51,397 nt of DNA. It comes from a virus. Its lineage: Duplodnaviria > Caudoviricetes. This document shows positions 10,343 through 49,921 of this stretch, in pieces. Positions within the stretch are counted from its first letter, which is position 1, and each line of letters begins with the position of its first letter. Below the pieces are notes generated by a model. That model was not told the origin of the DNA, ran no database searches, and saw only the letters and a list, made by a program, of their open reading frames with translations. The stretch covers positions 1-51,397 of IMG/VR virus record IMGVR_UViG_3300048588_000723; one strand, 5' to 3'. A program made the translations under genes and the position numbers.

Positions 10343-10418
10343 TGCGAGATGGAGCAGTTGGCAGCTCGTTAGACTCATACTCTAAAGGTCACCGGTTCGA
10401 GTCCGGTTCTCGCTACCA
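10343..10418 (+). tRNA. tRNA-Met(CAU), initiator-type
   Basis: 76-nt cloverleaf with encoded CCA, anticodon loop CTCATAC, T-loop TTCGAGT, U1:U72 mismatch and A11:U24 pair. Confidence 0.93.
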
Positions 10419-32935: not shown

Positions 32936-33024
32936 TAATTATAGGTTTTAAATAATTTTTACAGTTTGTTTGCAAACAAAACCATTCAGGATATGCTCCT
33001 GCAACTAAATTACGTTTGCAATAA

Positions 33025-33756: not shown

Positions 33757-33874
33757 ACTTTTTAAAATTTTCTGTTATAAATTGTGCTAATGAAAACAAA
33801 CCTATGCAGCAGATTATCAATAGTATAATTTGCCACCAAACTAGACTTAATAGCCATTGAACTATATCAATCAT
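33749..33874 (-). CDS. Small membrane peptide (41 aa)
   Basis: MIDIVQWLLSLVWWQIILLIICCIGLFSLAQF... fills the gap and overlaps the next start. Confidence 0.45.
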   Translation of the reverse strand: MIDIVQWLLSLVWWQIILLIICCIGLFSLAQFITENFKKYD

Positions 33875-33875
33875 C

Positions 33876-34247
33876 TTACTCAGGATTTAATTCTTTAAAC
33901 TCTTCTTCTGTAACTCCTGACCATTTAGCATGACTGAATACATGGAAATCTTTTTGCAGGTTTCTACTGGTCAAATATTCATCAATATGCTTAATTCCTA
34001 CAGATCGTATTTCAGAAAGAATTCCTTCATTACAATTTGTACAAAACGTTTCGTCAGCGCTTGTTACTATATTTTCAGGAGCAAAGTATCCATCACATGA
34101 CGTACACTTTTCTAGTTCATCAGTATTTTTTAATAAAACATGAGCTATATTGTTGACTACTGTTTCGTAAACTGCATCATTAATAAAATCGCTTTTCGTT
34201 AATTGAGCATCTGTTAATATTTTTTCGGCTTCTTTTTTATGATTCAT
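33876..34247 (-). CDS. Hypothetical protein with CxxC...CxxC
   Basis: CTSC and CTNC. Confidence 0.6.
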   Translation of the reverse strand: MNHKKEAEKILTDAQLTKSDFINDAVYETVVNNIAHVLLKNTDELEKCTSCDGYFAPENIVTSADETFCTNCNEGILSEIRSVGIKHIDEYLTSRNLQKDFHVFSHAKWSGVTEEEFKELNPE

Positions 34248-34251
34248 GGTT

Positions 34252-35583
34252 TTACTTTTTTTTAAATGAATTAAGTGGATGTTTTCTACTCATGTATGCA
34301 ATGATTTCATTGTGCTTTGCCATTGCATCTCTTAGCATGGACACAGAATGTTTTCTGTAATAGAAAAGGAATTCGTCAGTCAAGCAAGTGAAGTTAAATC
34401 CACATTTTGCAGCACGTATCCAAAACTCCCAATCTTCATATCCTAGCTTCATGTTCTCATCATAACCTCCGGCCATTGTCCACACGTCTTTCTTAAACAG
34501 CGAGCAGCAGTTCAATGGATTCTTATGAAGGAAATTTTCTAAGGTTGGATTTGTAAATGGCTTCACCCAGCGTTTGGATTGGTCACCAAATGTTACCAAT
34601 CCGGTTGCAACAATATCATTCTTGCCAATGGTACGTTCAATAAATTGCGGGTGTATTTTATCATCTGCATCAAGTGGTAGTATCCAACCTCCGGCCGCTT
34701 TTTTTATTCCGGCATTACGTGCTGAAGACAAGCCACCATTTTCTTTTTCAATCAGTTTTACTTTGCCATTGTTTGATATCGCTTTTCTATTTCTTGCTAA
34801 AGGAATACCATCCATGTATTGCTTAACAACCTCAGATGTATTATCTGGGGAGCCGTCATTAACAACTATGATTTCAATATCTTGATACGTTTGATTTAAT
34901 ACAGATTCAATTGCATCTGGTAGAAAGTGAGCTTGTTTGTAACAAGGAATTACTACAGTTACTTTGTTATTCCAACTGTTCCCCCAGTGATGAACTGATA
35001 GCGTGTTTTCTGTCACACATTCAGGAGTGTAAAATTCATCGTAGTGATAAGGGTAGAAATATTCCGGACGAAGTATCGCTACATCTTTATAAATTTTATC
35101 GAACTCGCCTACCTTCCATCCACGCTTCTTCATGATGTTGGTAAACATAATAGGCCCGGTTGCAAGTTCAATTTTTTCTGAATCAAACGGAAAAGCATCC
35201 ATGTAATCCAAACATTCCTTTAAATAAGGATGTCCTTTTTCTGCAACAATCACAGCATTGTTTATCCATGTTTTACTTTCTGCGCCCAATACAAGTTTGT
35301 TGTGCAACAAACAATCAAATGATTTCACAGCTTCCACATCAATATCAAAATAGATACCTCCATTTTCGTACAATTCCTGCACTCGAGCATAGTGGCCAGC
35401 TAGTGCATAGTTTTTGATTGCAATAGCTTTATCTACAAAGGTGCCATGTTTGACATTCTCCATTGAGATAATGTGTACTTCATAATCGGGCATCACTCGT
35501 TTCCATGACTCGATATACTTTTCAAATTTTTGTGGTACCGGCTTATCGCTGATCCATGTGCTGTAGATTTTTTTTGGTATCAT
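34252..35583 (-). CDS. Fused GT32 (DxD) plus GT2 glycosyltransferase
   Basis: MIPKKIYSTW and GGIYFDIDVE (GT32-like); VVIPCY, DGSPD, LDADD and EDWEFW (GT2). Confidence 0.9.
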   Translation of the reverse strand: MIPKKIYSTWISDKPVPQKFEKYIESWKRVMPDYEVHIISMENVKHGTFVDKAIAIKNYALAGHYARVQELYENGGIYFDIDVEAVKSFDCLLHNKLVLGAESKTWINNAVIVAEKGHPYLKECLDYMDAFPFDSEKIELATGPIMFTNIMKKRGWKVGEFDKIYKDVAILRPEYFYPYHYDEFYTPECVTENTLSVHHWGNSWNNKVTVVIPCYKQAHFLPDAIESVLNQTYQDIEIIVVNDGSPDNTSEVVKQYMDGIPLARNRKAISNNGKVKLIEKENGGLSSARNAGIKKAAGGWILPLDADDKIHPQFIERTIGKNDIVATGLVTFGDQSKRWVKPFTNPTLENFLHKNPLNCCSLFKKDVWTMAGGYDENMKLGYEDWEFWIRAAKCGFNFTCLTDEFLFYYRKHSVSMLRDAMAKHNEIIAYMSRKHPLNSFKKK

Positions 35584-35594
35584 AATTATTTTTT

Positions 35595-35777
35595 TTAGTC
35601 GATGTATCCTATTACTTTTAATGAGTTAGGCTCGTAAAGCGTAGCATTGTTGCTATATTCGTTTGGCTTCGTTACTAAATACACAGGAACTTTTTTATTT
35701 ACAAAAGCTTTGTTGTGAAACGTTCTTCCGGTTTTGCCATCCTTCGTTTCTACTATATATCCTGAATCCTTTTTCAT
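35595..35777 (-). CDS. Hypothetical protein
   Basis: ORF track; operon spacing. Confidence 0.55.
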   Translation of the reverse strand: MKKDSGYIVETKDGKTGRTFHNKAFVNKKVPVYLVTKPNEYSNNATLYEPNSLKVIGYID

Positions 35778-36286
35778 TAACCTTTAACAAACCACCATGA
35801 TTGATATTCTTTTCCTTCCCAAAAATCCTCTGTTGTAAAATTCATTTTTACTTCAGGATGAAGCTGCATGTATTCATCGATGAATTGCTTTACACCAAAA
35901 CCATTGTCACCGTAATCGTGTCCTGAAACTATTCCTCCGCTTCTTACTTTCGGAAACCATGCTTCAAAATCTGCTTTTACTTCTTCGTATGAATGTCCTG
36001 CATCTATGTAAACCCAATCAAGTCCTCCATTAGCATAATAGTCGGCTGCTGCATTAGAAGTGCCTTTAAATTTCTCAAAATGTGGCAATTCAAGGATAAC
36101 ACTTGCTACCTCCTCAATTTCTCGATTTTCCCATGAATCGACACAAATAATTCTGCCGGTCCAATGTTTTGAAATTGTTTTAGAAAATAATCCATAACGG
36201 ACACCAATCTCTGCTCCAGTTCCCTGTTTAAAATGTTCTTGGAATAATTTTCCGAATGTTTCTCTTGATTTATGTATCATAATCAA
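35777..36286 (-). CDS. Class I SAM-dependent methyltransferase (Methyltransf_24-like)
   Basis: AEIGV, DWVYIDAGHSYE and GGIVSGHDY. Confidence 0.85.
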   Translation of the reverse strand: MIMIHKSRETFGKLFQEHFKQGTGAEIGVRYGLFSKTISKHWTGRIICVDSWENREIEEVASVILELPHFEKFKGTSNAAADYYANGGLDWVYIDAGHSYEEVKADFEAWFPKVRSGGIVSGHDYGDNGFGVKQFIDEYMQLHPEVKMNFTTEDFWEGKEYQSWWFVKG

Positions 36287-36585
36287 TAAATTGATGTTTC
36301 GTCTGATTGTCTTAATAGTTTAGCAAATTGATCCACAAACTTTTCATTGGATGATAATTCTGATTCTTTCATGGTATCCAATATCATGTGAACTTTCTCG
36401 TGGTAGAAAGTATCTTTTATTTTGTCATCGGAAAGTTTATCTAACCCATTTGATGTAGATAAAAATATTTTGCTTTGACTGTAATCAGATTCTCCGTAAC
36501 ACTTTTTGTCATTGCAGTATTTATTATTCCATACCACATTTATTTTGGTGGCAAACAAGGTGAACGCTTTAGGTATTTTTTTCAT
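36283..36585 (-). CDS. HExxH metallopeptidase-like small protein
   Basis: TFYHEKVHMIL...NEKFVD. Confidence 0.65.
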   Translation of the reverse strand: MKKIPKAFTLFATKINVVWNNKYCNDKKCYGESDYSQSKIFLSTSNGLDKLSDDKIKDTFYHEKVHMILDTMKESELSSNEKFVDQFAKLLRQSDETSIY

Positions 36586-36970
36586 TTTTGATGTAGATTA
36601 ATTCTTCATTTTTGATTTCATAATACAAGTTTTGCAAACGATGCACATACTTTACTTTTAGATGACTAGATTTTTCAGAATTCAAAACAAACATTGGAGA
36701 GGTTAGCTTGTCAAGTATTGGAATTTTTACTTGTATCAAATAGAAATTTTCTTTTTGATATTCCCAATAGTCGCCCATATCCGTTACTTCAAATCCGAGC
36801 TCCTTGAATATTTCTTTTGTTAATTCAATTGGCTCGTGCTTTGAATTGAAATCTTCTGGATCATCTTGTAGCCACTTTAAAGTTTTGATATTTGTTATAA
36901 TATCACATGTATTGCCTTCTTCAATGAAGTTTAATAAATTGCCAAATCTCAATTCTGCTTTTTTAATCAT
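36569..36970 (-). CDS. Hypothetical protein, paralogue of 31202-31567
   Basis: LRFGNLL...PIELTKEIFKELGF...YVHRLQNLYYEIKNEEL. Confidence 0.65.
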   Translation of the reverse strand: MIKKAELRFGNLLNFIEEGNTCDIITNIKTLKWLQDDPEDFNSKHEPIELTKEIFKELGFEVTDMGDYWEYQKENFYLIQVKIPILDKLTSPMFVLNSEKSSHLKVKYVHRLQNLYYEIKNEELIYIKNEKNT

Positions 36971-36974
36971 AATT

Positions 36975-37283
36975 TTATTTTAAGTATTCTGGTTTAGATA
37001 ATGTTGCGTGTGGTACTGCCATCAATCGTTCTTTAGATATTAAATTTCCGGTTGCACGGCATATTCCGTATGTTTTGTTTTCAATTCTTTTTAGTGCATC
37101 GTTAAGCGATGATATAAATCGCTGTTGTCTTTCAAGTAACCTGTTGAATTCCTTTTTTGTTATCTGGTCAACAATTGGATGGTCTCGGTTTTCAAGATGA
37201 AAAAGCTCGTTTTTTGCTAATTCAATTTTCTGAAGCAGATTTGCTTTAAACTCTTCTAGTTCTATGTCTGAATATTGCACCAT
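36975..37283 (-). CDS. TraR/DksA-family protein (one-Cys type)
   Basis: ALKRIENKTYGICRATGNLISKERLMAVPHATLS. Confidence 0.85.
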   Translation of the reverse strand: MVQYSDIELEEFKANLLQKIELAKNELFHLENRDHPIVDQITKKEFNRLLERQQRFISSLNDALKRIENKTYGICRATGNLISKERLMAVPHATLSKPEYLK

Positions 37284-37284
37284 G

Positions 37285-37743
37285 CTATTTACTTTTTGAA
37301 TTAAAATATGTTAATACTTTTGCATAGCAAGGTCTGCAATCCATTCCCAATCTTCTGTTCGATTTATCATTGTTGTAAATTCCAAATGCCTTTATCCATA
37401 TTGGGTCAGATGAATTCCTTGTAAATAGGGAAATGGTTTGAGACATATGATATAATTCAAATTTTGAAATTTTATTTGCTTCAGCAACAAATCTATATTC
37501 TCCTCTAGGAGTCGAATAAATACAATATTCACTAGACCCAACAAATCCACCTTTTCTAAAAGCTGGCCGCTCATATTTTTTCTCCATGTATTGATTGAGA
37601 GCTCTTAAAATCAAACCATCAATAGCAATATTTACTTTCATAGCTAAACTCTTTTTTGCAATCAAGCTAAGCTGCTGCACGGCCTTATCTATTGCTACTG
37701 CATTTGCTTTGTAGTATTCTATTTGTTTGTTTATTCCTATCAT
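37285..37743 (-). CDS. Hypothetical protein
   Basis: ORF track; contains FRKGGFVG...GEY. Confidence 0.55.
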   Translation of the reverse strand: MIGINKQIEYYKANAVAIDKAVQQLSLIAKKSLAMKVNIAIDGLILRALNQYMEKKYERPAFRKGGFVGSSEYCIYSTPRGEYRFVAEANKISKFELYHMSQTISLFTRNSSDPIWIKAFGIYNNDKSNRRLGMDCRPCYAKVLTYFNSKSK

Positions 37744-38087
37744 TTTAATCTTGGTAAATTAAATATCAATTGGTTGTAATCGTTTCTAAATTGGGTGTTG
37801 CTGCTTTTTAATTCATGAAATTTTCTTATGCCACGAATGATAGACTCATGCTTCTTCCCAAAAATTTCGCCAATTTGCTCAAGTGTTAAATCGTGATGCT
37901 TCTTTAATAAGAAATAAGTCATATATTTTGTATCTCGTAAATGCACCGGCTTGTTTTTAGTCAGAAAATCTAAAAGTGGAATATTCTTAATCATGCTTAT
38001 TTTTTCGACTAGATGAAATGGCTCTATCTCATATCTGAGTAAAGCAGGAATGAGCATAGTGCTTATATTTTCTTGTTTAATTTTCAT
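37740..38087 (-). CDS. DnaA C-terminal (domain IV)-like HTH protein
   Basis: MTYFLLKKHHDLTLEQIGEIFGKKHESIIRGIRKF. Confidence 0.8.
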   Translation of the reverse strand: MKIKQENISTMLIPALLRYEIEPFHLVEKISMIKNIPLLDFLTKNKPVHLRDTKYMTYFLLKKHHDLTLEQIGEIFGKKHESIIRGIRKFHELKSSNTQFRNDYNQLIFNLPRLK

Positions 38088-38089
38088 AA

Positions 38090-39589
38090 TTATAAGTGAA
38101 CAAATTTGTCGTCATCTAAAAAATTGTCGTTTGATTCCATACTGTTTTTTCTTGGTTCTGTATAATCAATTGGAGTCACAGAATTATATGAAGGAGTGTC
38201 ATTCGATGGCAAAAACTTTGTCAGGTGACTAATGAATCGAAGTTTTTCTGTTCCAATAGGCCCATTCCTATGTTTTGCAAATATTATTTCAGCTACACCT
38301 CTAGCATCTTCTCCATTGTCATATTCAAATACATTGTAATATTCCGGACGATGTATAAAAGCAACGATATCGGCATCCTGTTCAATGGCTCCAGATTCAC
38401 GTAAATCTGAAAGCTGAGGTCGTTTATCTCCTCCCCTAGTTTCAACTGCACGACTTAACTGTGATAATGCAATTATAGGTATTTCTAATTCTTTGGCAAG
38501 TGATTTTAATCCTCTACTTATTGAGGATATCACTTGCTCACGATTTTCTTTTATACTATTATTTTTAACACCTTCCATCAATTGCAAGTAATCAACAATG
38601 ATATAACCAATACCCTTTTCTCTTTTCAGTTTCCGAGCTTTACTCCTTAATTCAGTGATAGAAATGCTTGGAGTGTCATCTAAGTATAAAGGTGAGTTGA
38701 TTAATTTGATACAATTATTTTGTATGTATGTTAATTGCTCGTTTGCAATTCCTCTTCTTGTAAAATCTGAAATAGAGGTATCGCTTTCTAATGCAAAAAT
38801 TCGTGTTGCAATTTGTCGGGAAGACATCTCTAATGAAAATATAACCCCTGGTATTTTAAAGTCAACAGATGCATTCCGAGCGAAATTACAAACCAGTGAT
38901 GTTTTACCCATTGCCGGACGAGCAGCTATAATAATTAAATCGGGTGATTGCCAACCTGCAGTTATCCTGTCAATGTTTGGATATCCCGAAGGAACACCTG
39001 AAATTCCTTTTTTTGTTAAAAGCACTTCATTGTGTGCCATCACTTCATTCCACATAGTTGCAATTGACTGAACCTTGCCAATTGCAACATCTTTTGTTAT
39101 AGCCGTTAATCCCTTTTCTAACGACTCTAAAACATCAAAGCAATCTGCATGGTCAGAATAGGCTTCCTGCATCACTTCTGTGCTTAATCGAATCAATTCC
39201 CTCTGAATAAATTTTTGTTGAATAATACGAGCATGGTACTCAGCTTGATTTGATTCTCGATTTGTGAGCTGAGTAATATACCAAGGACCTCCAACCAAAT
39301 CTAGCTTTTCAGTTCTTTTTAATTCCTGAGTTACACTAAGTATGTCAGGCGTGATACTTTTTTTATATAAATTTATTATTGCACTATAAATTAACTCATG
39401 TGTTTCTTTGTAGAACGATTCTGGCTTAAGTATATCTGCAATAACGTGAACAGATTCGAGGTTCAGCATTAATGACCCAAGCACAGCCTCTTCCAAATCA
39501 ATTGCTTGAGGAGGAAGCTTAACATCTAAAGAAGGTCGAGCTAATTGAGAGGATTTATTCTTTTTATTATATTTATTTACTTCATTCAT
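38090..39589 (-). CDS. dnaB: Replicative DNA helicase
   Basis: PPQAIDLEEAVLG, AARPAMGKT, IVDYLQL, LSQLSR and DLRESGAIEQDAD. Confidence 0.97.
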   Translation of the reverse strand: MNEVNKYNKKNKSSQLARPSLDVKLPPQAIDLEEAVLGSLMLNLESVHVIADILKPESFYKETHELIYSAIINLYKKSITPDILSVTQELKRTEKLDLVGGPWYITQLTNRESNQAEYHARIIQQKFIQRELIRLSTEVMQEAYSDHADCFDVLESLEKGLTAITKDVAIGKVQSIATMWNEVMAHNEVLLTKKGISGVPSGYPNIDRITAGWQSPDLIIIAARPAMGKTSLVCNFARNASVDFKIPGVIFSLEMSSRQIATRIFALESDTSISDFTRRGIANEQLTYIQNNCIKLINSPLYLDDTPSISITELRSKARKLKREKGIGYIIVDYLQLMEGVKNNSIKENREQVISSISRGLKSLAKELEIPIIALSQLSRAVETRGGDKRPQLSDLRESGAIEQDADIVAFIHRPEYYNVFEYDNGEDARGVAEIIFAKHRNGPIGTEKLRFISHLTKFLPSNDTPSYNSVTPIDYTEPRKNSMESNDNFLDDDKFVHL

Positions 39590-40260
39590 TTTAATTCAAA
39601 TGGCCTAGGTGCTGATGTTGTTGTAGTTTTATTAGCTTCTTTTTGGCCTCCTTTATATACAGGCTTATCTAATTCTTTGGCAGTTTTCTTTAATGAATTT
39701 TGAATATGATTCTCGTCAGTGAACTTGTATCCAGCATAGTCAGAATCCATTTGATTCAGCAATTTTGTTAAATCAATTGCCTTGTTTTTCATTCTCCAAA
39801 GATTTAAAAACTCAGGCATATTCTCTTTTATGTAATCAGAGATATTGGCTTTATAGCGAGTTAATCCAATGTAGAAAAATTCCTTTGCTGCCTCAGTTAA
39901 TAATGGTCTTGGTTGGATTTCAGTAATTTGTTTTTCGCCATTCCATCTTTTTGCATTCCCAGCTAATCCCGATTTTCTTCTTTTTTCTCTGTTTGCAATT
40001 TGTTCTTCCCGGATCAGTTCTAATCGTTTATTTCTCAACAAGCCGTCTTCTCCTTTTGGAAATTTATCAATGATAAATTCGATTGTTTCAACCTCACATC
40101 TTGCAATGCCAGCTAGCTTATCTTTATTCGTTGGCACCATTCCTTTGTCCCATTGATATAGCAACAGAAGTATATATGCTCCAACCTGCTCTGCTGACAT
40201 GTGCATAGTACCTACCAAAAAATCTTGTACGTATAATTGAAATGCAGGTGATTTATTCAT
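39586..40260 (-). CDS. YdaU/DUF1376-family putative replication initiator
   Basis: PAFQLYVQDFL...MSAEQVGAYILLL; immediately upstream of dnaB. Confidence 0.8.
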   Translation of the reverse strand: MNKSPAFQLYVQDFLVGTMHMSAEQVGAYILLLLYQWDKGMVPTNKDKLAGIARCEVETIEFIIDKFPKGEDGLLRNKRLELIREEQIANREKRRKSGLAGNAKRWNGEKQITEIQPRPLLTEAAKEFFYIGLTRYKANISDYIKENMPEFLNLWRMKNKAIDLTKLLNQMDSDYAGYKFTDENHIQNSLKKTAKELDKPVYKGGQKEANKTTTTSAPRPFELK

Positions 40261-41024
40261 AAATTAATTGTAGATATTTTAAGCGTTTGTAAATTCAGGA
40301 ATGCTCCCTGATAATCTAATTTTCCTTCCCGGAACATCTTCCATAATGTCCCCATTGCCAACTGCACTAATGTTGAGTTGATAAATAAATCCTGCTTTGA
40401 TAATGCTTCAGCAAGTGAACAGCTCGGAGTGTTCGTGTCTTCCTTTTGTTTTTTTAGTCCAGGAAATAATTGAAATAGGTCTTGCAAAATAGCAGCAGTT
40501 TTATGTTTGCTCTTTGGTTGTTGCTGGATATAAACAGTGCTTATAACGAATTGTCCGGAGTGCTGAGTGTTTCCAATATCCATCCAATAGTAAGGCTTTT
40601 CAAATGGCTCTGCATTTGTTTTTGTATCATGTATGCACTCATCAATAAGTATTCTGGAAGCAATTGTATCAACACAACTGATGGTGATGTTTGCATGTCG
40701 ATTAAGAGCCTTCAGATTATATCTTATAGGCATTGCATCCCATGAAGTCCCAAAGAATCTATTTAATCTAGTAATCAATACAACAGCTTTATTAACTCCC
40801 AAATCAGCAGGAGAAAACAATTGTCTTCCAAGATTTGCTTCTGTAACTATATCATCATCAAAGCAAGTAACATGCAATCCTAAGTGGCCAAGTTTCTTTA
40901 ATGATTGGTCTATGCGAGCCAACTGTGTTAATACCTGACTACCATTTCCTCCTGCGCCAATAACATTCACAGTGATTGGATGAACTGGGTTAAGTAAATA
41001 TTCGTGTACAAAATGTATTTTCAT
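40257..41024 (-). CDS. PRTRC system ThiF/E1-like enzyme
   Basis: GAGGNGS, DDDIVTEANLGRQ, CVD and PSCSLAEAL. Confidence 0.92.
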   Translation of the reverse strand: MKIHFVHEYLLNPVHPITVNVIGAGGNGSQVLTQLARIDQSLKKLGHLGLHVTCFDDDIVTEANLGRQLFSPADLGVNKAVVLITRLNRFFGTSWDAMPIRYNLKALNRHANITISCVDTIASRILIDECIHDTKTNAEPFEKPYYWMDIGNTQHSGQFVISTVYIQQQPKSKHKTAAILQDLFQLFPGLKKQKEDTNTPSCSLAEALSKQDLFINSTLVQLAMGTLWKMFREGKLDYQGAFLNLQTLKISTINL

Positions 41025-41237
41025 AATATATTACTTCAGTTTAACAACAAATGAATTAAATCCGCTTGCAATAAAAGTTCCTTCAGTTAGTGACAATTGA
41101 TTCAGTTCAAATAAATCATCTTTCATAAGTTTATTGGTTAACATTGATTTCAAATAGCTTTTTTCAACAGGTGTTGTGCCACACCATCCCTATTGATTTG
41201 ACTTATAAATATTAGTTCGTGAGCCTTTTTTTTCATT

Positions 41238-41957
41238 CTACTTGGTAATTGAGTTGATAAATCCATTAACTGTTTTGTATTTGCTGAGTACAAATGCATC
41301 TTTAAAAAACACTTGATTTGTACCAACATTTCTCTTTAAAATAACGGATAGGTTATACTTCTTCTGAACCACATTTGTATCTATTAGATGCGTGAACTCC
41401 GAGCCAAAATACCTACGCTCCCATCGCTTCATTTCTTCCTGAATAGTAGGTAATCTTTTTGCTTCAGTAGTGTTTCCCATGCAAACTTCGCCATCTTCGT
41501 ATTGATTGAAAAAAGGAGCTTTGTATAACTTTGATTTTTCTGTTGGTCGTGTGTTTTTCTCCAGGGCAAATACATACAAGTTTTTCTTTACAACTGCAAA
41601 TAGCATAGGAGGACACACGATTGTTCCGGATTTTAATTTCAATTGTTTGTTGAAGTGCAGCATCCTTTTTTGTGAAGGAATAAACCACATCAATGTTGTA
41701 TTGGCATATTCCTGTTTCAAATAAATCAAATTGTCAGGAAGAACACCTTTTGATTGCATGGGTTCAAATTGCTTTTCTCCAAGGGCTTTTGCTACCCCAA
41801 TTAAAGAATCTGATGTCAATGGCTTTCCTTCCGTCCACTTATATTTATCACCGTCCTTCAGTATAGCATGTGATTCTAAATAATAATCAGAGCCTTTTTT
41901 ATATACAATGATTGCTTGTACAGGATCAAAAGGAAGTATCGTCTCTTCTACTATCAT
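41238..41957 (-). CDS. PRTRC system protein B (prokaryotic E2 family D-like)
   Basis: LYKAPFFNQYEDGEVCMG and FGSEFTH. Confidence 0.88.
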   Translation of the reverse strand: MIVEETILPFDPVQAIIVYKKGSDYYLESHAILKDGDKYKWTEGKPLTSDSLIGVAKALGEKQFEPMQSKGVLPDNLIYLKQEYANTTLMWFIPSQKRMLHFNKQLKLKSGTIVCPPMLFAVVKKNLYVFALEKNTRPTEKSKLYKAPFFNQYEDGEVCMGNTTEAKRLPTIQEEMKRWERRYFGSEFTHLIDTNVVQKKYNLSVILKRNVGTNQVFFKDAFVLSKYKTVNGFINSITK

Positions 41958-43101
41958 AATGATTTTTATATTTTAAATTGTAATACTGAAAGTACATCGC
42001 TCTTCCTTCTTTCATAAACTCTTTTAGAGCTTTTAATGGCGCTATTGGTTCAGGCTGAATATGTTCGTTTTGATTAAATTCGCCAACTTCATAAGGCGCC
42101 ATTACTCCTAATTGGCCAGCTGTATCATTTTGCCACTCTTCAATTTTCTCGAATACTTTATCATAAAAAGAGTGAACAAATGAGTAATAATCAGATGGAA
42201 TAATTGGTGTTCCATCATTATTTTCCGGGTCGTCAGGATTAAAATTGAATCGATATAAATTAAATGGTTGCTCTAAAATAGGTATAGCTAATTTTAGCCA
42301 GTTGTGATGTATGCGCTGCTTTAGGCTTCTTGGCTTGTATTCATTTATTTTTTTGATGCAATCTGCCTCTGAAATTTCTCTGCCATACTTAAAAATAAAT
42401 TGCAACAATTGCCTCCATTGTCCATTGTGTTTATATTTTGCTACATCTATTTCAAACCAATGGTTCCATTCTTCATCATCTGATTCCTCCAATGGCAATT
42501 CGTGGACTATCATATCTTCGAATTGACTTCCAGTTGAAATGCTATGATTCAAAATCATCCTTCCGAGTGTACACAATGTTAGTTCGTAAAGCTCCACGTT
42601 CCATTTTTGTAAATCAGGCAGCCATTCGAGCGGCATGGTGTATAATCCTTCAAGTTCTGGATATTCTGTAAAATATTTTATTACATACCTGTCTGAATTG
42701 AAATCCATATAAATACACCAGTCATTATCTCCGGCAGCTTTCTTTACCTCTGAAAATAACCAATCTGCAATTTCATCAATAGTAGTAGAGCTGTTCCAGT
42801 CTGTTCTATCAACAAAAGTTGGCGCATTTCTTAAACAGTGATAAATATCAATCAATGTATCGTGGCCAGTAAATTGTTTTCTGAACTGATATTGAATGCC
42901 GTCTTTGAATGCACTCACCTTTTTAAGCTCAACACCTATAAAAGAGGGCAAAGCATTTCCGGAGGAGGAAGTTGTAAGTTTCCTTCTTTTTCCTCCTGAA
43001 ATTCCGTATTCAGATATTCTTTTCTGTTGATGAGAGAATCTCTGAATGCTTTTGCCAGATTTTGGTGCAGGTCTACGTTGTATTTTGGTTGTGTGTCGCA
43101 T
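41926..43101 (-). CDS. PRTRC system protein F-like
   Basis: Lies between C and B as in PRTRC cassettes; the sequence itself was not recognised. Confidence 0.6.
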   Translation of the reverse strand: MRHTTKIQRRPAPKSGKSIQRFSHQQKRISEYGISGGKRRKLTTSSSGNALPSFIGVELKKVSAFKDGIQYQFRKQFTGHDTLIDIYHCLRNAPTFVDRTDWNSSTTIDEIADWLFSEVKKAAGDNDWCIYMDFNSDRYVIKYFTEYPELEGLYTMPLEWLPDLQKWNVELYELTLCTLGRMILNHSISTGSQFEDMIVHELPLEESDDEEWNHWFEIDVAKYKHNGQWRQLLQFIFKYGREISEADCIKKINEYKPRSLKQRIHHNWLKLAIPILEQPFNLYRFNFNPDDPENNDGTPIIPSDYYSFVHSFYDKVFEKIEEWQNDTAGQLGVMAPYEVGEFNQNEHIQPEPIAPLKALKEFMKEGRAMYFQYYNLKYKNHYDSRRDDTSF

Positions 43102-43139
43102 TCGTTTTTCAGCCTTTTTAAAAGAGCCATTGTTTTCAT

Positions 43140-43361
43140 TTATCCTTTTGTTCCGATAACAGATTTAAATTCGTACACAGCTGCATCGTCTTTCATTTTC
43201 GGACCACTTACTGATGCAGTAATAAGTTGTGGATATTCTCCACTATAATGATTGATTACCTCCTGAATAGACATTTTTGGATTTGGATCCGGTAAGTCTA
43301 TTTTTTTACTATCCACTTGAATGGTGAATTTTCTTTTTGCAACATTTACTTGTAATGCCAT
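43140..43361 (-). CDS. PRTRC system protein C (ubiquitin-like)
   Basis: LPDPNPKMSIQEV...YPQLITASVSGP...GTKG with C-terminal Gly. Confidence 0.92.
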   Translation of the reverse strand: MALQVNVAKRKFTIQVDSKKIDLPDPNPKMSIQEVINHYSGEYPQLITASVSGPKMKDDAAVYEFKSVIGTKG

Positions 43362-43390
43362 TTATTGTTTCCTCCTATTTTAATTAATGA

Positions 43391-43993
43391 TTATAAACTC
43401 TCCACTGCTTTCACCCATTTAACAGCTTTCTCGTATTCTGTTTTTGCTGTTGCATCATCCGGGAATAAATCCAATGCTTCTTTGAAAGCATTTTCTGCAT
43501 CCTTGTATTTGCGCTCATCAAATAATTTTTTGCCAGTGGCCATTGAGTGCTTAAATACTGTTTTTTTGTTTTCAGTTTCTGCATCTACTGAAGGTGCATG
43601 GCTTCCTTCTTTCTTTTCTGTTTCTATTTTTTCTACTTCCGGCTTTGCACCTGCCTTCTTTTCCTCTTTTTTATTAGCAGCTTTTTTATCCGCTTTTTTT
43701 GCATCTGCCTTCTTTGATGCTGTTTTGTCGTCATCGCTTCCTTCTTCTTCCTCTTCCGTTTCAGGAGCATCACTTACTTCAGCAGTGAACTTTTTTTCCT
43801 GATTAGGAATAGATTTGATTTGATTTAAAAATTCAGCATCAAATTCAGCAGCTGTACCACTCATGTTAATGTGCTTTCCTTCATGCACAACAAGAGCTGT
43901 TAAATCCTCACCAACTTTTGTAACGGTGATTCTGATTGATTGTTTGTCTTGCAACACTATGGCTGCTAATTCTTGAAAAAAAGTTGTTTCCAT
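43391..43993 (-). CDS. PRTRC system protein E with C-terminal TPR-like helices
   Basis: FFQEL...GTAAEFDAEF, charged linker, then KYKDAENAFKEALDLFPDD. Confidence 0.8.
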   Translation of the reverse strand: METTFFQELAAIVLQDKQSIRITVTKVGEDLTALVVHEGKHINMSGTAAEFDAEFLNQIKSIPNQEKKFTAEVSDAPETEEEEEGSDDDKTASKKADAKKADKKAANKKEEKKAGAKPEVEKIETEKKEGSHAPSVDAETENKKTVFKHSMATGKKLFDERKYKDAENAFKEALDLFPDDATAKTEYEKAVKWVKAVESL

Positions 43994-44013
43994 TTTGATT
44001 GGTTTTTAATTAA

Positions 44014-44391
44014 TTAATTGTTTTGAGTTGTATGTGAGCTATGATTGCCTTTTGAATTTTCAATGTCTATTTTCTTTGCTAACTCTTCTAATATTTTTGT
44101 TGTATTCAGAAAAGTATTCCCGTTGACATCAGTAAAATGAGTGAACATGTTCACAGTATCAGATACTTTTTTATTCCATGCTTGTTTATCCCCTTGAAAA
44201 TCCTCTTCAAGTTTGGCTTTAATTCTTAAAAAATCACCTTCAAATTTTGCGCAAGAATATGTAGTATCTACCTTCAACAAATATTCGCTGAAGCCTGGAG
44301 TGTGCAAAACAATTGATGCAGCAATATCGTATTCTTTACAAATTGCTTTGATGCGCTCCATGGCTGTTTTTAATTTTGGACTGTATTTCAT
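44014..44391 (-). CDS. Hypothetical protein
   Basis: ORF track. Confidence 0.65.
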   Translation of the reverse strand: MKYSPKLKTAMERIKAICKEYDIAASIVLHTPGFSEYLLKVDTTYSCAKFEGDFLRIKAKLEEDFQGDKQAWNKKVSDTVNMFTHFTDVNGNTFLNTTKILEELAKKIDIENSKGNHSSHTTQNN

Positions 44392-44394
44392 GTT

Positions 44395-45561
44395 TTATTT
44401 TTTAGTGAATGTTACGTTAGTTAATTGCTTTCCATTGTTCCAAATGGACATTAGACCTTTTTCTGTGGTTTGTATTTTCATTGTTTCAATCTTTCCGAAG
44501 AAGTTTATGTTACCTCCCATATCAACCACCCATCCAATTTTTTTAGTTCCATCAGGATAAGTAAATGGCCTCATAACACGTCCTACAATTTGATAATACA
44601 ATGCCAGTGACATAGTTGATCGAGCTATCAATACAGCTTCTAATTCAGGATAATCAAAACCGGTTGTGAGTACTCCCACATTTATGACACATCTTATTTT
44701 GCCTGACTTGAATTGCATTAAAATTCGTTCTCTAACTTTTGCATCCGTTTCTCCAGTTAATACAACTGATCCTGGTATTCCTTTTGAAACTTCGTTTGCT
44801 TCCGATATCAGTGTGCAGAAAACAAGTATGTTATTTCGCTTTTGCAGAATTCTATTTGCATAACCAATGGTGCGCTGAGGCATATTGATTTGTCGGTAAT
44901 AGCTTTTCAAACTTGCATCTGTAAAATCAGTTCCATTAGAATTTGTTTGAAGCATACTTCTGTCCACTACGTTGAAGTTATAATACTCTAGTTGGGCTAA
45001 GTGTCCAGCATTGAAAAGAACATCGTTCTGAATGTGATATATGCACTTATTAAAGATTCTGGGATTCGTTCTGTTGATGAATTTTAATTGCGCTCCATCA
45101 AATCCTGTTGTTAAGCGATAAGGTGTTGCTGTCAATCCTAAGACTTTTGCATCCGGAAGAGAGTGAATAAAATCGTGATACATTCCTCCATTTGCATTTA
45201 CTAAATGGCATTCATCAATAATAATGTTTTTTACATCTCGGAATAAGTGATGTTTTTTTGCAACACTACCAATCGTTGCGAATGTAATTTTATCAATGAA
45301 TTTACTTCCGGCAGATGCTGAATACACTCCTGCACGATATCCGTAAGACATAAACTTTTTTAAGTTCTGTTCCAATATTTCTTTGGATGGTTGGAAAACA
45401 ATTGTTTTAGAATCCAAACTCATTGCCGTGTTTGCAATCACAACACTTTTTCCTGATCCTGTTGGAAGAATCTCAAAAGCATTGTGATTGCCCTTACCTT
45501 TAAAGTAAGCTACATTGGCATCAATTGCCTCAACTTGATATGTGCGTGGAGTGAAAATCAT
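44395..45561 (-). CDS. SF2 DExH helicase (RadD/YejH-like)
   Basis: LPTGSGKS, DECH, TATP, TGFDYP and QIVGRVMR. Confidence 0.92.
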   Translation of the reverse strand: MIFTPRTYQVEAIDANVAYFKGKGNHNAFEILPTGSGKSVVIANTAMSLDSKTIVFQPSKEILEQNLKKFMSYGYRAGVYSASAGSKFIDKITFATIGSVAKKHHLFRDVKNIIIDECHLVNANGGMYHDFIHSLPDAKVLGLTATPYRLTTGFDGAQLKFINRTNPRIFNKCIYHIQNDVLFNAGHLAQLEYYNFNVVDRSMLQTNSNGTDFTDASLKSYYRQINMPQRTIGYANRILQKRNNILVFCTLISEANEVSKGIPGSVVLTGETDAKVRERILMQFKSGKIRCVINVGVLTTGFDYPELEAVLIARSTMSLALYYQIVGRVMRPFTYPDGTKKIGWVVDMGGNINFFGKIETMKIQTTEKGLMSIWNNGKQLTNVTFTKK

Positions 45562-46146
45562 TTACTGTTTTGCGTTTTCAAATTCGTCTGCTTGGTCTAC
45601 TAGGCTTAGTTGGTCTGGATCGTTTGTTGTCTCCACTTCAACTGGAGTGCATTTGCCGTTTCTGTATTCTTCCACTTCAGCAATGCATTTGTTTGATTCT
45701 TCTAGTAACTCATTGTACCATTTATAGGATGTACCAGGCTCTAAAAGAATTTTTGGTGTTTTCATTTCAATGCGTCCACCAACATTGATGTGTTTGCTTC
45801 CAATTAAAATAATTTGTCTATTTTCTTCGGAACCTTTAATTTCAAAGCCTGTTACAATGTAGAGGTGGGCTTGATCGCTATTGTGATACTTATCGATGTT
45901 ATCTACATCAATAGATTTAAAAGCATCATCAATAGCTGCCATGTGAACATTTAACCGGGCAAATGCAATTTTTAAATCTTCATCAACAATACCACTTCCT
46001 TTTACATTGTGTTTGTCACCAATTCCTACACCGGAAAGGATAGCGAATGAATAGTGACAGAAATCGTCTTTGATTGCTGCTGCGGTGATTTCAATTGCTT
46101 TTGCTTCTGTAGCTTCAGTTTCTTTTTTGTTTTTTTTCTTTGCCAT
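45562..46146 (-). CDS. Hypothetical protein
   Basis: ORF track; abuts the helicase. Confidence 0.65.
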   Translation of the reverse strand: MAKKKNKKETEATEAKAIEITAAAIKDDFCHYSFAILSGVGIGDKHNVKGSGIVDEDLKIAFARLNVHMAAIDDAFKSIDVDNIDKYHNSDQAHLYIVTGFEIKGSEENRQIILIGSKHINVGGRIEMKTPKILLEPGTSYKWYNELLEESNKCIAEVEEYRNGKCTPVEVETTNDPDQLSLVDQADEFENAKQ

Positions 46147-46150
46147 TTTT

Positions 46151-46540
46151 TTAGTTATTAATTGTTAGGTACTCGTTGATAATATTCTGTGCCATTTCAT
46201 ATCCAATTGCAAATTCACACTTGAATCCTCTTCTTTGTAATTCAAGCTTTACTGCAAACTGCTCAGCCACATGGTCGGATATAGGTGTGGTGCCATCTTT
46301 CATAAGTAGCTTTTCTCCAGTCCGTTTTAATTCGATGAACAATCCTGCATACTCTCCTCTTTTTTCGATGATGAATAAATCAGGGAATCCATTATGAGAG
46401 CGTAATGTTTTTGCTTTTACTGCCATACCAACTGACAAACGTATTCCACTCATATCAGTATTAAACATTACTCCAGGGTGTACTTGTTTGAGCCACTTAC
46501 AAACTAGTGAATGCTCTTGTGCTTCAGTTAATTTACTCAT
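46151..46540 (-). CDS. VRR-NUC-like PD-(D/E)xK nuclease
   Basis: TEAQEH, GFPDLFI and LFIELK. Confidence 0.8.
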   Translation of the reverse strand: MSKLTEAQEHSLVCKWLKQVHPGVMFNTDMSGIRLSVGMAVKAKTLRSHNGFPDLFIIEKRGEYAGLFIELKRTGEKLLMKDGTTPISDHVAEQFAVKLELQRRGFKCEFAIGYEMAQNIINEYLTINN

Positions 46541-47130
46541 GCTGCAACCCTCCCGAATTTTATAATTTTATCGGCCCAGAAATCATTCATGTTATCACGA
46601 CAGTCTAATGGGATAAGAAAATTCTTTTTCAATGGTATGCTATGGATCATAAAATATCCATCATTCACTTTAGCCATTTTAGCATAGTGCCATACCTGAT
46701 TTTTATAACCCATGTATTCAATTAATCCATGTACATCTTTTGATTTGGTTACTTTCAAATCAAGCACACAATGTTTAGGAAGAAGAAAATCTAATCTTCC
46801 TGTTGTTGCCATAATAAATCCGTTGTGAACAATATCGGCTGTGTAACTTAATTGCTTTTTGAATTGAGGTAATACAGCCCCGAAAGTGTTTTTTATTTCC
46901 ACGGCAATGGCTCTTGCTGTTGGATATAATGGATCCAACATATTAACAGTTTCGGGGTCTGTGATTATCCCATCCACTAACTTACCAATAGTAATGTTTT
47001 CGGTAATGGTTAGTTCTTCTACAACTCCAAAGCGTTCACGCTTCAGAAATGAATGGCTGTATCCCGGTAGTTTTAAATAGTCCTCAAAAGGAATATTATC
47101 GTGTTGGATGATGTTTGTGTATTCAATCAT
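46537..47130 (-). CDS. RecE/exonuclease VIII-like PD-(D/E)xK nuclease
   Basis: YSHSFLK, GRLDFL, LDLKVT and GYKNQVWHY. Confidence 0.7.
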   Translation of the reverse strand: MIEYTNIIQHDNIPFEDYLKLPGYSHSFLKRERFGVVEELTITENITIGKLVDGIITDPETVNMLDPLYPTARAIAVEIKNTFGAVLPQFKKQLSYTADIVHNGFIMATTGRLDFLLPKHCVLDLKVTKSKDVHGLIEYMGYKNQVWHYAKMAKVNDGYFMIHSIPLKKNFLIPLDCRDNMNDFWADKIIKFGRVAA

Positions 47131-47132
47131 GG

Positions 47133-47576
47133 TTATAAATCAGATGAATTAGGAATGTTAGCACTTTCTTGAACAGCCGGTTTAGCTTCTGTGATTTCAA
47201 CTGATAAGTGAACACCTTTTACTTCAGAATTTATGTGCTTACCAATTGATTTAGCTACTAATAATTTCTTCCAATCCTTTTCAAGGAAGTCCTGATAAGC
47301 ATATTTTTTGTTGTTTTTAAATGTTACAACAAGCACTCGATTTATATTGTCAAACTCTGTCTTTTCAACATTGCTACTTTCTGGCCAGCATTTTTCATTT
47401 GGAACAATTTCATTGGAAGTGTTGTGATTAAAAATGCTATAAGAATTTTCAACAACAACTTGTAATACTTGGTCAGGAGTTTGGTCTGTTCTGCTTTCTG
47501 TTGTTATTATAGCAAGAGCCGCAAGCAGCAATTTGCCTTCAGGAATATTTGTGTTGATTTCTTCGATTGATTTCAT
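47133..47576 (-). CDS. KTSC-domain protein
   Basis: SSNV...LVVTFKNNKKYAY...AKSIGKHINSEVKG. Confidence 0.8.
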   Translation of the reverse strand: MKSIEEINTNIPEGKLLLAALAIITTESRTDQTPDQVLQVVVENSYSIFNHNTSNEIVPNEKCWPESSNVEKTEFDNINRVLVVTFKNNKKYAYQDFLEKDWKKLLVAKSIGKHINSEVKGVHLSVEITEAKPAVQESANIPNSSDL

Positions 47577-47751
47577 TTTAAATGGTATTTAATTACTTCA
47601 ATTTTATTCTCCATACACTCGATGGAGTCTTTTATTTTATTTATAATCTGAAGCCGCTTTTCCTTTTTTACATTTTGTAAGTGGCTTTCGGCTTTGTGCT
47701 TTTTAACAAGCAATCTTTTTGATACAAGGAGACCACAATGTGTTTTCGCCA

Positions 47752-48870
47752 TTAAAGCTTATCCACTTGTTTAAATGTGATACCTGATGGCTGAAAGTTA
47801 TTGTCATCACATTTTACTTTTGCTAGAGCAATTCCTAATTGTGATGCAGTACATGCAAACCATTTATTTACTTTCAACTTTGGTAAACACAAATGAATAT
47901 TAGCTGCAAATGCAGTTACGATAGCGATCATGTTCTCCACACTTTCTTCCATATCTAGTTCGTAAGATTGTTTCAGTGCTTTTAAGTCATTTGATACAAC
48001 CGGAGCAATAGCCAATGTGCTTAATTTTGCTGCTACATCCGCATTGGCTTTTTCGTTTTGGATATCTTGTGCTTTTGCAGCTGCTGCATCCTTGGCTAAT
48101 TTTAAAGCCTCTGCTTTATTATTTAATGCCACTTCATAGTCTGTGAACTTTGCTCTGATTTCGTTCTCGTATTGTGATAAATACTTCTTAGAATCGAAAA
48201 TTAAAAGTTCATTACATAATGCCATGTATTCATCAGTAGTAACAACATCACTAAAAGAATTTAATGGATATTGTATTTTGAAATCAACTTCTGTTAAACG
48301 TGTAAGTGCTAGTTTAATGAAGTCAGCTAATTCAGCCATTCCAATGTTTCCTTCACCTAATGCATACTCATATACTTTGGCAACTTTCTCATTGATTTTG
48401 TTTTGGAAAGCTGCCTCAGCATTATTTTTAGTGTTGATTAAAAATTCTCTACATTGTTTTCTCTTCTCAATTTTTTGTGATTCAACACGTTTTTTTTCTT
48501 CATCTGCTTTTTTCAATGCGATGATACTCTTTTCCAGTGCTTCAATATGAGGCAGGAATGATTTTTCCGGTTCCATTAATCGTTTACTCACATCATCGAA
48601 TTTTGATGTGATCGATTTTCTTGAGTTGGTAATAGCTGCACAGTCTGCTTTTATTTCCTTCATTAAAACCTCTGCATCTTTCACTTCCTCAATTTTTGTA
48701 GGGATTTTAATTTTAGCAATTGACTGTTGTGCTCTTGCTTGAATAAGCAATTCATTTTCATAAATTGATACACCTAAGTCGCCCCAGGCTATTCTTTTCT
48801 TTTCCATCATAGTAGGGTCAATATCAATTTTCGCTACTAATTTTTTTGTTTCTGTTGCAGTTGTTTCCAT
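47752..48870 (-). CDS. Coiled-coil recombination-module protein
   Basis: Helical and charged; lies between recT and the exonuclease. Confidence 0.6.
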   Translation of the reverse strand: METTATETKKLVAKIDIDPTMMEKKRIAWGDLGVSIYENELLIQARAQQSIAKIKIPTKIEEVKDAEVLMKEIKADCAAITNSRKSITSKFDDVSKRLMEPEKSFLPHIEALEKSIIALKKADEEKKRVESQKIEKRKQCREFLINTKNNAEAAFQNKINEKVAKVYEYALGEGNIGMAELADFIKLALTRLTEVDFKIQYPLNSFSDVVTTDEYMALCNELLIFDSKKYLSQYENEIRAKFTDYEVALNNKAEALKLAKDAAAAKAQDIQNEKANADVAAKLSTLAIAPVVSNDLKALKQSYELDMEESVENMIAIVTAFAANIHLCLPKLKVNKWFACTASQLGIALAKVKCDDNNFQPSGITFKQVDKL

Positions 48871-48908
48871 TTTGATTTTGTTATTAGTTACTAGCTATTT
48901 TTTAAATT

Positions 48909-49055
48909 AAGGGGAGGAGAAGTACAATAATTATCGTGTACCTTTTGAATCCTCCCCTTCTCTCATTGTGGCTCCGGTTCCACACACATCTGGTTGCTAT
49001 GTTCTCTGTGTGGAAAAAACATAGCCCACTTTTCGCCTCAACCGTTTTATGAGCC
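48909..49055 (-). ncRNA. Candidate pseudoknotted intergenic RNA plus hairpin
   Basis: Crossing helices 48978-48986/49007-49015 and 48996-49003/49018-49025 inside a closing stem; second hairpin at 48909-48959. Confidence 0.55.
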
Positions 49056-49066
49056 TCTGTGGTTAT

Positions 49067-49921
49067 CTATAAATCGTTTGTTGTTGCAAATTCAGTATTC
49101 GGCTTTATTGCTTCATTGGTAGTTGATTCAACTACTTCAGCATAATTTGCTTCTTCGCTTCCGGCAGCATTATCTTTTTCAGCATCTACTATTACTTCAA
49201 TAGGGTGTGCAATAATGCTTTTAAATTTTCCTTCATTAGGATTAGTTCCAAGTTTTTTCAATCCGTGACGCACTGCTTTTGCTCTTGCAAACTCCGGGTC
49301 AATACCGCCTTTCCAATTGGTATAATTTTCATTGGCATACTTCAACGACTCGGTTGCAGCAGCTGTGCCAAAATCATCTTTGTAACGTCCATTTTCTTTG
49401 TGTGAAGCTCTTCTCCAACGATAAAAATCTGATTCATCAAATTCTCTTTTTTCCCATCTAGGTTCAGGAGTAGAAGGAAGAAGTATTTCAACTGATACAG
49501 CAATAACTTTTCCTGTTGCATCTTTTGTGACAACCGGATTTTTCATATCCAATATTCTACCACATTGGCGATTAATAGAAATAATTCCGTTGGCAGATGG
49601 CATTATCTCTAATGCTTTTTTGGTCACCATTTGTCCATTGTTATCTTTTACTTTAACATTTCGAGTTTTCACATAAACCAAACCTGCGTTTGGATCAAGT
49701 GATAAATTTTGCTTTAACACTGTTTTAACGGCCATAACAATTGTGGCCGGAAGGCAATCTAATATTTCAGGTTTTGAAATGCAATGCATTCGTATGTGTT
49801 CTAACTCCTGGAGTGCTAATGTTTTTACATCTACACCATCAGCTGCGTTAAGTCTTAATACAGCTTCTAATTGTGGGAGTTCCGCTTTTAGCAATTCTAT
49901 TGGTTTTAATTCTGTTGACAT
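49067..49921 (-). CDS. recT: RecT-family single-strand annealing protein
   Basis: LDCLPATIVMAV...NLSLDPNAGLVY...FARAKAVRHGLKKL. Confidence 0.7.
   Translation of the reverse strand: MSTELKPIELLKAELPQLEAVLRLNAADGVDVKTLALQELEHIRMHCISKPEILDCLPATIVMAVKTVLKQNLSLDPNAGLVYVKTRNVKVKDNNGQMVTKKALEIMPSANGIISINRQCGRILDMKNPVVTKDATGKVIAVSVEILLPSTPEPRWEKREFDESDFYRWRRASHKENGRYKDDFGTAAATESLKYANENYTNWKGGIDPEFARAKAVRHGLKKLGTNPNEGKFKSIIAHPIEVIVDAEKDNAAGSEEANYAEVVESTTNEAIKPNTEFATTNDL

Follow-up and report, generated by a model that had tools for sequence, protein, structure and literature searches.

A class of prokaryotic ubiquitin-like conjugation systems was predicted in 2006 in PRTRC, the ParB-related and ThiF-related cassette, or class 6d, which NCBIfam/TIGRFAMs also define. 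As described in 2006 by Iyer, Burroughs, and Aravind, its parts are a ubiquitin-like protein (Ubl) with a C-terminal Gly, an E1-like protein, an E2-like protein, a rapidly diverging alpha-helical protein, and a JAB peptidase with a JAB-N domain (PMC1779556). The Cupriavidus necator plasmid pHG1 carries the genes in the order ParB, E, C, F, B, A, ThiF, and Ralstonia phage Dina (RefSeq) in the order E, C, F, B, A, ThiF. Protein C is the Ubl, B the E2-like protein, ThiF the E1-like protein, and A the JAB peptidase. Here we describe a cassette of this kind in IMGVR_UViG_3300048588_000723, one IMG/VR virus record that is 51,397 bases long and has an estimated completeness of 93%; this whole stretch is the window. 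Its gene order is that of pHG1 without ParB and A, and that of Dina with A replaced by a 213-base spacer.

PRTRC has mostly mobile carriers. Relatives of protein A are found on 154 PLSDB plasmids, and an Elizabethkingia preprint places PRTRC on integrative and conjugative elements, with its function given as unknown in the passages that mention it. For the Burkholderia gladioli prophage AB2, a 2026 BMC Genomics paper lists ParB and ThiF together with PRTRC A, B, F, C, and E, and says that their function has gone unstudied (PMC13366799). When we compared the window ThiF with 50,697 GenBank phage records by tblastn, 14 records matched. Four of them, Ralstonia YO105_4, Ralstonia Dina (two records), and Burkholderia BgVeeders33, did so with 37-41% identity over at least 89% of ThiF. 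PRTRC in phages is already in RefSeq annotation (Dina) and in print, and the cassette in the window is real and not new.

Compared with canonical PRTRC (TIGR03734-03742), the window has the same Ubl, E2, and E1 families, a diverging helical protein between C and B, and a mobile carrier. However, it has no A, ParB, or D, its Ubl is unextended, the protein in the place of F lies outside PRTRC_F, and E is barely recognisable. Four of the five class 6d components are present, and the JAB peptidase is absent. Real protein conjugation in bacteria has been described for Bil (types I and II), Bub/6E, and Cap2 of the cyclic oligonucleotide-based antiphage signaling system (CBASS), with separate or fused E1, E2, and Ubl (10.1101/2024.11.21.623966). 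Those systems differ from the window in their E2 and Ubl families, in having a peptidase or deubiquitinase in the operon, and in a role in host immunity or stress. ThiS/ThiF and MoaD/MoeB also combine an E1-like adenylating enzyme with a beta-grasp protein that has a C-terminal Gly. The window differs from them in scores far below their cut-offs, an E2-like partner, and no biosynthetic neighbours.

Our preferred reading, to which we give a probability of roughly 0.55, is that the window holds an intact JAB-less PRTRC (class 6d) of the Bacteroidota type, carried by a temperate siphophage in its early replication operon, and that it acts as a tagging cascade that aids replication near the host replisome.

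The window encodes a PRTRC-type Ubl and putative conjugation enzymes

The cassette consists of five genes and a spacer.

43391-43993, minus strand: protein E, 200 amino acids, named from a sub-threshold PRTRC_E match and its position
43140-43361, minus strand: protein C, the Ubl, 73 amino acids (TIGR03738, Prok_Ub)
41926-43101, minus strand: F-like protein, 391 amino acids, named from its position between C and B
41238-41957, minus strand: protein B, E2-like, 239 amino acids (Prok-E2_D)
41025-41237, minus strand: B-ThiF spacer, 213 bases, in the position that the JAB gene takes in canonical cassettes
40257-41024, minus strand: PRTRC ThiF-family E1, 255 amino acids (TIGR03736)

A preliminary description, made from the letters of the stretch, had reported five co-oriented open reading frames (ORFs) at 40257-43993, and all five are on the minus strand as it said. 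The motifs that it quoted are also there: GTKG in C, GEVCMG in B, and a nucleotide-binding loop and PSCS in ThiF. Its assignment of the five to PRTRC families fared unevenly. C and ThiF scored above the cut-offs of their PRTRC models, but B fell slightly short, E was sub-threshold, and F had no match. On the Pfam models Prok_Ub and Prok-E2_D, C and B were both above the cut-off.

ThiF scored 249.2 bits on TIGR03736 (cut-off 144.75). It has GAGGNGSQ at residues 22-29, with the nucleotide loop at G23-G28, and PSCS at 200-203, which makes Cys202 the candidate catalytic residue. Residues G23, G25, G26, G28, R67, K79, D119, and C202 were invariant in an alignment of 30 sequences. ThiF also matched ThiF and MoeB models weakly, far under the cut-offs of those families. 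The best matches of its profile to sequences in the PDB were to UBA5 and NAE, at about 1e-5.

Protein C scored 60.3 bits on TIGR03738 (cut-off 45.95) and 81.8 bits on Prok_Ub (cut-off 25). Both matches run to its final residue, and the protein stops at G-T-K-G without an extension. Protein B scored 117.9 bits on Prok-E2_D (cut-off 25). GEVCMG lies at 156-161, with Cys159 as the candidate catalytic residue and His190 downstream. In an alignment of 46 sequences C159 was invariant and H190 nearly so. A Cys with a conserved His after it, and the classical His missing, is the E2 signature described for class 6d (PMC1779556).

The JAB gene is absent and a spacer occupies its place

The preliminary description had seen no JAB peptidase. 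This was borne out by PF14464 and TIGR03735, which were silent over all 51,397 bases at E≤1; the JAB models matched both of the positive controls, Dina and BgVeeders33. PRTRC ParB (TIGR03734) and protein D (TIGR03739) also had no match in the record at E≤1, although at 93% completeness a gene beyond its ends is possible.

The spacer at 41025-41237, which the preliminary description had missed, holds only two short ORFs of about 28 and 37-40 codons. We considered a remnant of the JAB gene there and rejected it, because tblastn with Dina protein A found nothing in the spacer; the sole matches in the cassette region were at 41643-41672 (E 8.4) and 42713-42802 (E 9.4). Protein B has its full length (239 amino acids versus a median of 235), so no gene has been truncated here and the interval is a spacer or insertion. 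It showed no similarity to the spacers of nine other loci with gaps of more than 100 bases. The 37-40-codon ORF stops 5 bases before the ThiF start. Its peptide has D-D-L-F and Q-L-S-L, loosely like clamp-binding peptides, a likeness seen post hoc that may be due to chance.

The JAB-less cassette is common in viruses and Bacteroidota genomes

To collect viral loci, a ThiF alignment made of 30 database relatives was turned into a scan of IMG/VR. The scan gave 180 pattern matches, of which 126 encode a relative, and the best 80 of these 126 (ThiF identity 45-57%) were annotated with hidden Markov models (HMMs) built for this analysis. For bacterial loci, one genome per prokaryotic species was scanned; among 600 pattern matches listed, 566 encode relatives, and the best 80 were used. 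These 80 are Bacteroidota by label, with three metagenome-assembled genomes labelled Clostridium, Lachnospiraceae, and Proteobacteria.

The preliminary description had treated PRTRC as a cassette found mostly on plasmids and conjugative elements. Our frequency survey showed that the phage cassette is not rare. It is common in IMG/VR, where at least 126 stretches with a ThiF relative came from only two peptide patterns. Close kin were not found: the nearest locus in the scans (L004 in our numbering) has 57% ThiF identity, a single-protein scan of IMG/VR gave no close relative, and blastn of the region against GenBank phages gave nothing.

The order E, C, B, ThiF was present in 70 of the 80 viral loci, and most of the remainder are cut by contig ends. 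About 69 of the 80 genome loci have the same JAB-less order. Among the best 80 genome loci, all 80 have ThiF, 78 have B, 71 have C, 69 have E, 56 have an F of the window type, and none has A. A of the Dina type was likewise found in 0/80 viral loci, and Prok-JAB matched 0/50 when whole records were searched (the first 50 viral records, of which 17 have a completeness of 90% or more). The C-to-B spacing is also typical, at 1182 bases in the window versus a viral median of 1157.

The tag ends in the same way across these loci. Lys-Gly is the last dipeptide of the Ubl in 70 of 72 viral loci (Lys-Ala in the other two), and all 71 genome-locus Ubls end in Gly, with a terminal KG in 71/71. Overall, 141 of 143 JAB-less cassettes have a Ubl whose last four residues are precisely G-x-K-G. 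By contrast, the JAB-bearing cassettes extend it past G-x-K-G in all three cases examined, by 62 residues in Dina, 62 in BgVeeders33, and 5 in pHG1. This pattern fits the earlier suggestion that an exposed Gly removes the need for a maturation protease. Because the same order and ending recur across viral and genome loci, the protease-free five-gene cassette is the standard Bacteroidota form. The JAB-less layout is no peculiarity of this phage.

The window shares with the JAB-less Bacteroidota-type loci its five genes, their order, the G-x-K-G end, and the setting in a replication module. It differs in its 213-base spacer, in having no adjacent beta-clamp, and in an E with a TPR-like end that lacks the [LMI]F and acidic tail of most relatives. 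In 52 of the 79 viral loci with both genes, B and ThiF share 4 bases, and gaps of more than 100 bases occur in 9 of the 79.

We also asked whether the related IMG/VR records could be conjugative transposons, and rejected this. The check covered 50 of the 80 records and, among terminases, Terminase_6N; the Bacteroidota conjugation ATPase TraG (TIGR03783) was found in 0/50 and Terminase_6N in 15/50, 11 of them above the cut-off.

Other features of the viral loci are recorded here. In seven loci (L023, L028, L047, L057, L067, L070, and L080) the C-to-B interval of about 1.1 kb has only ORFs of 47-84 codons under translation table 11, which suggests frameshifts, assembly errors, or stop-codon reassignment. 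In three provirus loci (L039, L052, and L053) host-type genes, such as a MatE transporter and a hybrid histidine kinase, directly follow ThiF, and the cassette therefore lies at the extreme edge of these elements. Across 73 viral loci, 57 of the ORFs immediately downstream of ThiF had no Pfam match.

Related viral cassettes lie among replication genes

A clamp, DnaB, or superfamily 2 (SF2) helicase gene lies co-oriented within 7 kb of the cassette in 55 of 80 viral loci versus 14 of 80 genome loci, a contrast that, like the clamp-adjacency counts that follow, is uncorrected for the relatedness of the loci. In 26 of 68 viral loci the next ORF upstream of E encodes a DnaN-type beta-clamp. Most relatives of E have a conserved [LMI]F dipeptide near the C terminus, often followed by an acidic tail, and the Phe column is Phe in 68 of 74. 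When the dipeptide is within 3 residues of the end of E (12 of 70), the clamp is adjacent in 11 of 12 cases, compared with 15 of 58 for the others. Such E endings are reminiscent of clamp-binding peptides.

The family-wide context points to the replisome and the sliding clamp at least as much as to defence. For this window the lead is weaker, and we regard it as one at the level of the family. The 'LF' at 157-158 of the window E aligns better with the first helix of a TPR-like unit, which is found upstream of the motif in other E proteins. The nearest locus, L004, has the same build as the window.

Proteins E and F-like are the most divergent members

Mean column identity was 24% for the F-like protein, 28% for E, 42% for B, and 54% for ThiF.

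The preliminary description had called E a TPR-bearing protein. In agreement, E has a weak TPR_2 match at residues 154-180, and an AlphaFold 2 model gives it a TPR-like end. The model predicts an alpha-beta3-alpha N-terminal domain (1-62), a disordered Lys/Glu-rich linker (63-135), and a three-helix TPR-like unit (137-199). This last unit superimposes on peptide-binding TPR domains with Z of about 10 and a root mean square deviation of 1.1-1.2 Å over 56-59 residues. For helical repeats, such a match of a predicted structure shows only a common arrangement. An HMM seeded with the window E and the Dina E found ORFs at the same position in other loci (74 ORFs over 83 records), and the ORF that it linked in locus L080 scored 189.5 bits on PF19556.

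The 391-amino-acid protein had been named PRTRC F, and this name was not upheld. TIGR03742 (PRTRC_F) matched 3/3 canonical controls but not the window protein, and 0/54 of its aligned relatives matched NCBIfam models. Comparisons with canonical F by hhalign gave probabilities of 0.1% and 0.9%. Both hhalign runs pair a D-G-x-x-I ... F-x-W ... D stretch; this amounts to a hint but falls short of evidence. The protein shares size and position with canonical F, but no family match, and the label F therefore refers to position only.

A search of 1.84 billion representatives gave the F-like protein 71 relatives at E≤0.001. Its AlphaFold 2 model is confident (predicted local distance difference test 87, predicted template modelling score 0.80) and consists of a basic disordered N-terminal arm (residues 1 to about 60) and a mostly helical body. 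Foldseek against the PDB gave no match at E≤0.001, the best Z from VIA-align against 48,161 chains was only 4.2, and the ESM Atlas gave nothing usable. The single match in BFVD was an uncharacterised Caudovirales protein. As modelled, the body has no recognised fold.

A public gene call starts the F-like protein at an internal TTG, giving 341 amino acids. However, its relatives reach 50-90 residues further N-terminally with a similar basic arm, and a [RG][IVL]SG[GR] motif is present in the window protein and in 5 of 9 relatives examined. We rejected as probably spurious a rival 67-codon ORF (42936-43139, minus strand) that begins at the first base after the Ubl stop and runs across the F-like gene's 5' end in a different frame; it has no homologue in the 80 related loci. 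Because the relatives have the arm and the rival ORF has no homologue, we prefer the 391-amino-acid start, which is a prediction from sequence and not proven.

The cassette forms part of the early replication operon in a temperate phage

The record has a G+C content of about 35% along its whole length. Its plus strand encodes a large terminase, portal, and tape-measure protein, and a long block on the minus strand holds DNA-metabolism genes. Because these structural genes are accompanied by a tyrosine integrase, the phage is a temperate siphophage. Its host is probably a Bacteroidota bacterium; a close host match was not found. Other features of the record are as follows.

44395-45561, minus strand: RadD-like SF2 helicase (NF053632 1.8e-67, ResIII, Helicase_C, PHROG 16)
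44014-44391, minus strand: 125-amino-acid protein of unknown function, without a family
39586-40260, minus strand: DUF1376 primosomal/initiator-type protein (PF07120 9.4e-12, PHROG 3992)
38090-39589, minus strand: DnaB helicase (DnaB_C 2e-94)
35777-36286, minus strand: S-adenosylmethionine (SAM) methyltransferase
34252-35583, minus strand: two-domain glycosyltransferase
33025-33756, minus strand: Stealth CR2-like protein
31574-32935, minus strand: N6/N4 DNA methyltransferase
29548-30678: tyrosine integrase with Arm-DNA-bind_5 and Phage_int_SAM_5
10343-10418, plus strand: tRNA-Met (CAT), inside the structural gene block

The cassette had been placed between an SF2 helicase and an initiator and dnaB, and matches to NCBIfam, Pfam, and PHROG models confirmed these flanks. 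On the minus strand the order is SF2 helicase, 125-amino-acid protein, E, C, F-like, B, spacer, ThiF, DUF1376, DnaB. The helicase and 125-amino-acid genes are co-oriented with E and packed tightly against it, with 20 bases upstream of E. The next junctions are 29 bases (E-C) and 38 bases (C-F-like), the 3' end of the F-like gene runs 32 bases into B, and the ThiF and DUF1376 genes share 4 bases. No terminator-like sites were found on the minus strand at 39500-45700, in a scan that used no models of Bacteroidota promoters. The ORF at 44014-44391 had no family match and no homologue across the related loci. No beta-clamp gene was found in the record. No DNA polymerase was seen in the phage, so it probably relies on the host replisome.

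Further minus-strand replication and recombination helpers of the same operon lie at 36283-38087 and 46151-49921. They include SprT-like, DksA/TraR zinc finger, DnaA C-terminal helix-turn-helix-like, resolvase-like (PHROG 5702), and KTSC-domain proteins and a weak RecT match. The modification genes at 31574-36286, also on the minus strand, are on the integrase side of the early region. They are possible DNA or surface-glycan modification morons.

Possible roles of the cassette

According to our preferred reading, the cassette would be expressed together with the phage replication genes. The ThiF-type E1 would adenylate Gly73 of the 73-amino-acid Ubl and then load it onto Cys202. The Ubl would be handed from Cys202 to Cys159 of B, and B would attach it to lysines on target proteins. 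Because no peptidase is encoded, the tag would need no trimming and the phage could not remove it. The F-like protein and E probably select the conjugation targets, or are the targets themselves, because they diverge fastest; that the F-like gene overlaps the beginning of B is in line with this. As phage copies occupy replication modules, the role of the cassette is more plausibly to help an incoming element start replication at or near the host replisome than to defend a prophage. That the cassette conjugates proteins at all we infer from the conservation of its residues and from what other bacterial E1/E2/Ubl systems do.

Several points weigh against this reading. The Ubl ends in Lys-Gly instead of Gly-Gly. 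B scored 130.1 bits on TIGR03737, 1.3 under the cut-off of 131.45, and its profile found nothing among PDB sequences at E≤1. E is below both cut-offs (TIGR03741, 16.2 bits versus 37.95; PF19556, 17 versus 26), and the F-like protein has no match in NCBIfam at E≤10, in Pfam at E≤0.01, or in PHROGs or PADLOC. The 213-base spacer interrupts the B-ThiF coupling that is found in most loci. The window has neither a clamp gene nor the C-terminal [LMI]F motif in E, and relatedness among the loci was left uncorrected in the comparisons that favour a replication setting. Papers that mention PRTRC describe its function as unknown where they do so (PMC13366799; Elizabethkingia preprint), and we found no functional or structural study of PRTRC in the literature, supplements aside, or in the PDB.

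Three alternatives remain, of which counter-defence or host takeover ranks first, although it is unlikely. Host immune proteins, or other proteins of the host, would be inactivated by the phage through tagging at an early stage of infection, and E and F would serve as substrate adaptors, much as in the preliminary description, which spoke of host or competitor proteins. The early operon suits such a role, and the fast divergence of E and F is as expected at an arms-race interface. Anti-restriction-type neighbours occur in related loci, with ArdC downstream in 1 of 73 and DpnD/PcfM upstream in 2 of 68. In addition, a 2026 preprint describes PRTRC B as a site where mutations recurrently concentrate in a prophage of Phocaeicola vulgatus (10.64898/2026.10.01.756045). 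A diversity-generating retroelement is reported for a P. vulgatus prophage; we rejected one for the window, where none of the 49 ORFs with 90 amino acids or more was recognised as a reverse transcriptase. However, no sequence or context ties the cassette to known anti-defence proteins, and the phage neighbours are mainly replication genes.

Prophage defence, or superinfection exclusion by Bil-like tagging of an invading phage's tail protein, is distinctly improbable. The phage is temperate, and other characterised bacterial E1/E2/Ubl systems (CBASS Cap2 and Bil) are anti-phage (10.1101/2024.11.21.623966). However, the genes are inside the replication operon amid helicase and primosomal genes and not in a moron or lysogeny position, and there is no deconjugating peptidase, unlike in Bil operons as described in that source. 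E, C, F-like, and B had no match in PADLOC 2.0, a 2023 release that may lack Bil and Bub models. ThiF reached 12.8-26.4 bits on CBASS E1-E2 models, over the Rossmann part only.

Least probable of all is a cassette that does not conjugate. In one version the Ubl would carry sulfur or be an adenylated intermediate of cofactor synthesis, on the pattern of ThiS/ThiF or MoaD/MoeB, as the weak ThiF and MoeB matches of ThiF might suggest. In the other, the cassette would act in partition, as its 'ParB/ThiF partitioning cassette' name implies and as one paper calls it, without a test in the passage concerned (PMC13366799). Against this, an E2-like protein is always there, its Cys invariant and its His nearly so, none of the 49 window ORFs scanned was seen to be a partner for sulfur transfer or cofactor synthesis, and there is no ParB in the record.

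Our preferred reading, of a tagging cascade that aids replication, also has a more specific form, which we consider rather doubtful, somewhat more so than counter-defence but less so than prophage defence. Phage PRTRC may conjugate its Ubl onto the sliding clamp or clamp-bound proteins, like PCNA ubiquitination or SUMOylation, with E as a docking arm and the F-like protein, with its orphan fold, as an E3-like specificity factor. In this phage, where both a clamp gene and the clamp-type tail of E are missing, the TPR-like end of E would dock on a host replisome protein instead.

Should PRTRC conjugate proteins, bacteria would have a widespread tagging system encoded by viruses, in contrast to the host-defence systems CBASS and Bil. 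The window is one clean, complete, minimal example, with five genes, a ready-made tag, and no protease, and it introduces no new principle. Phage PRTRC is widely spread and steadily placed in replication modules, and the question at the level of the family is worth an experiment.

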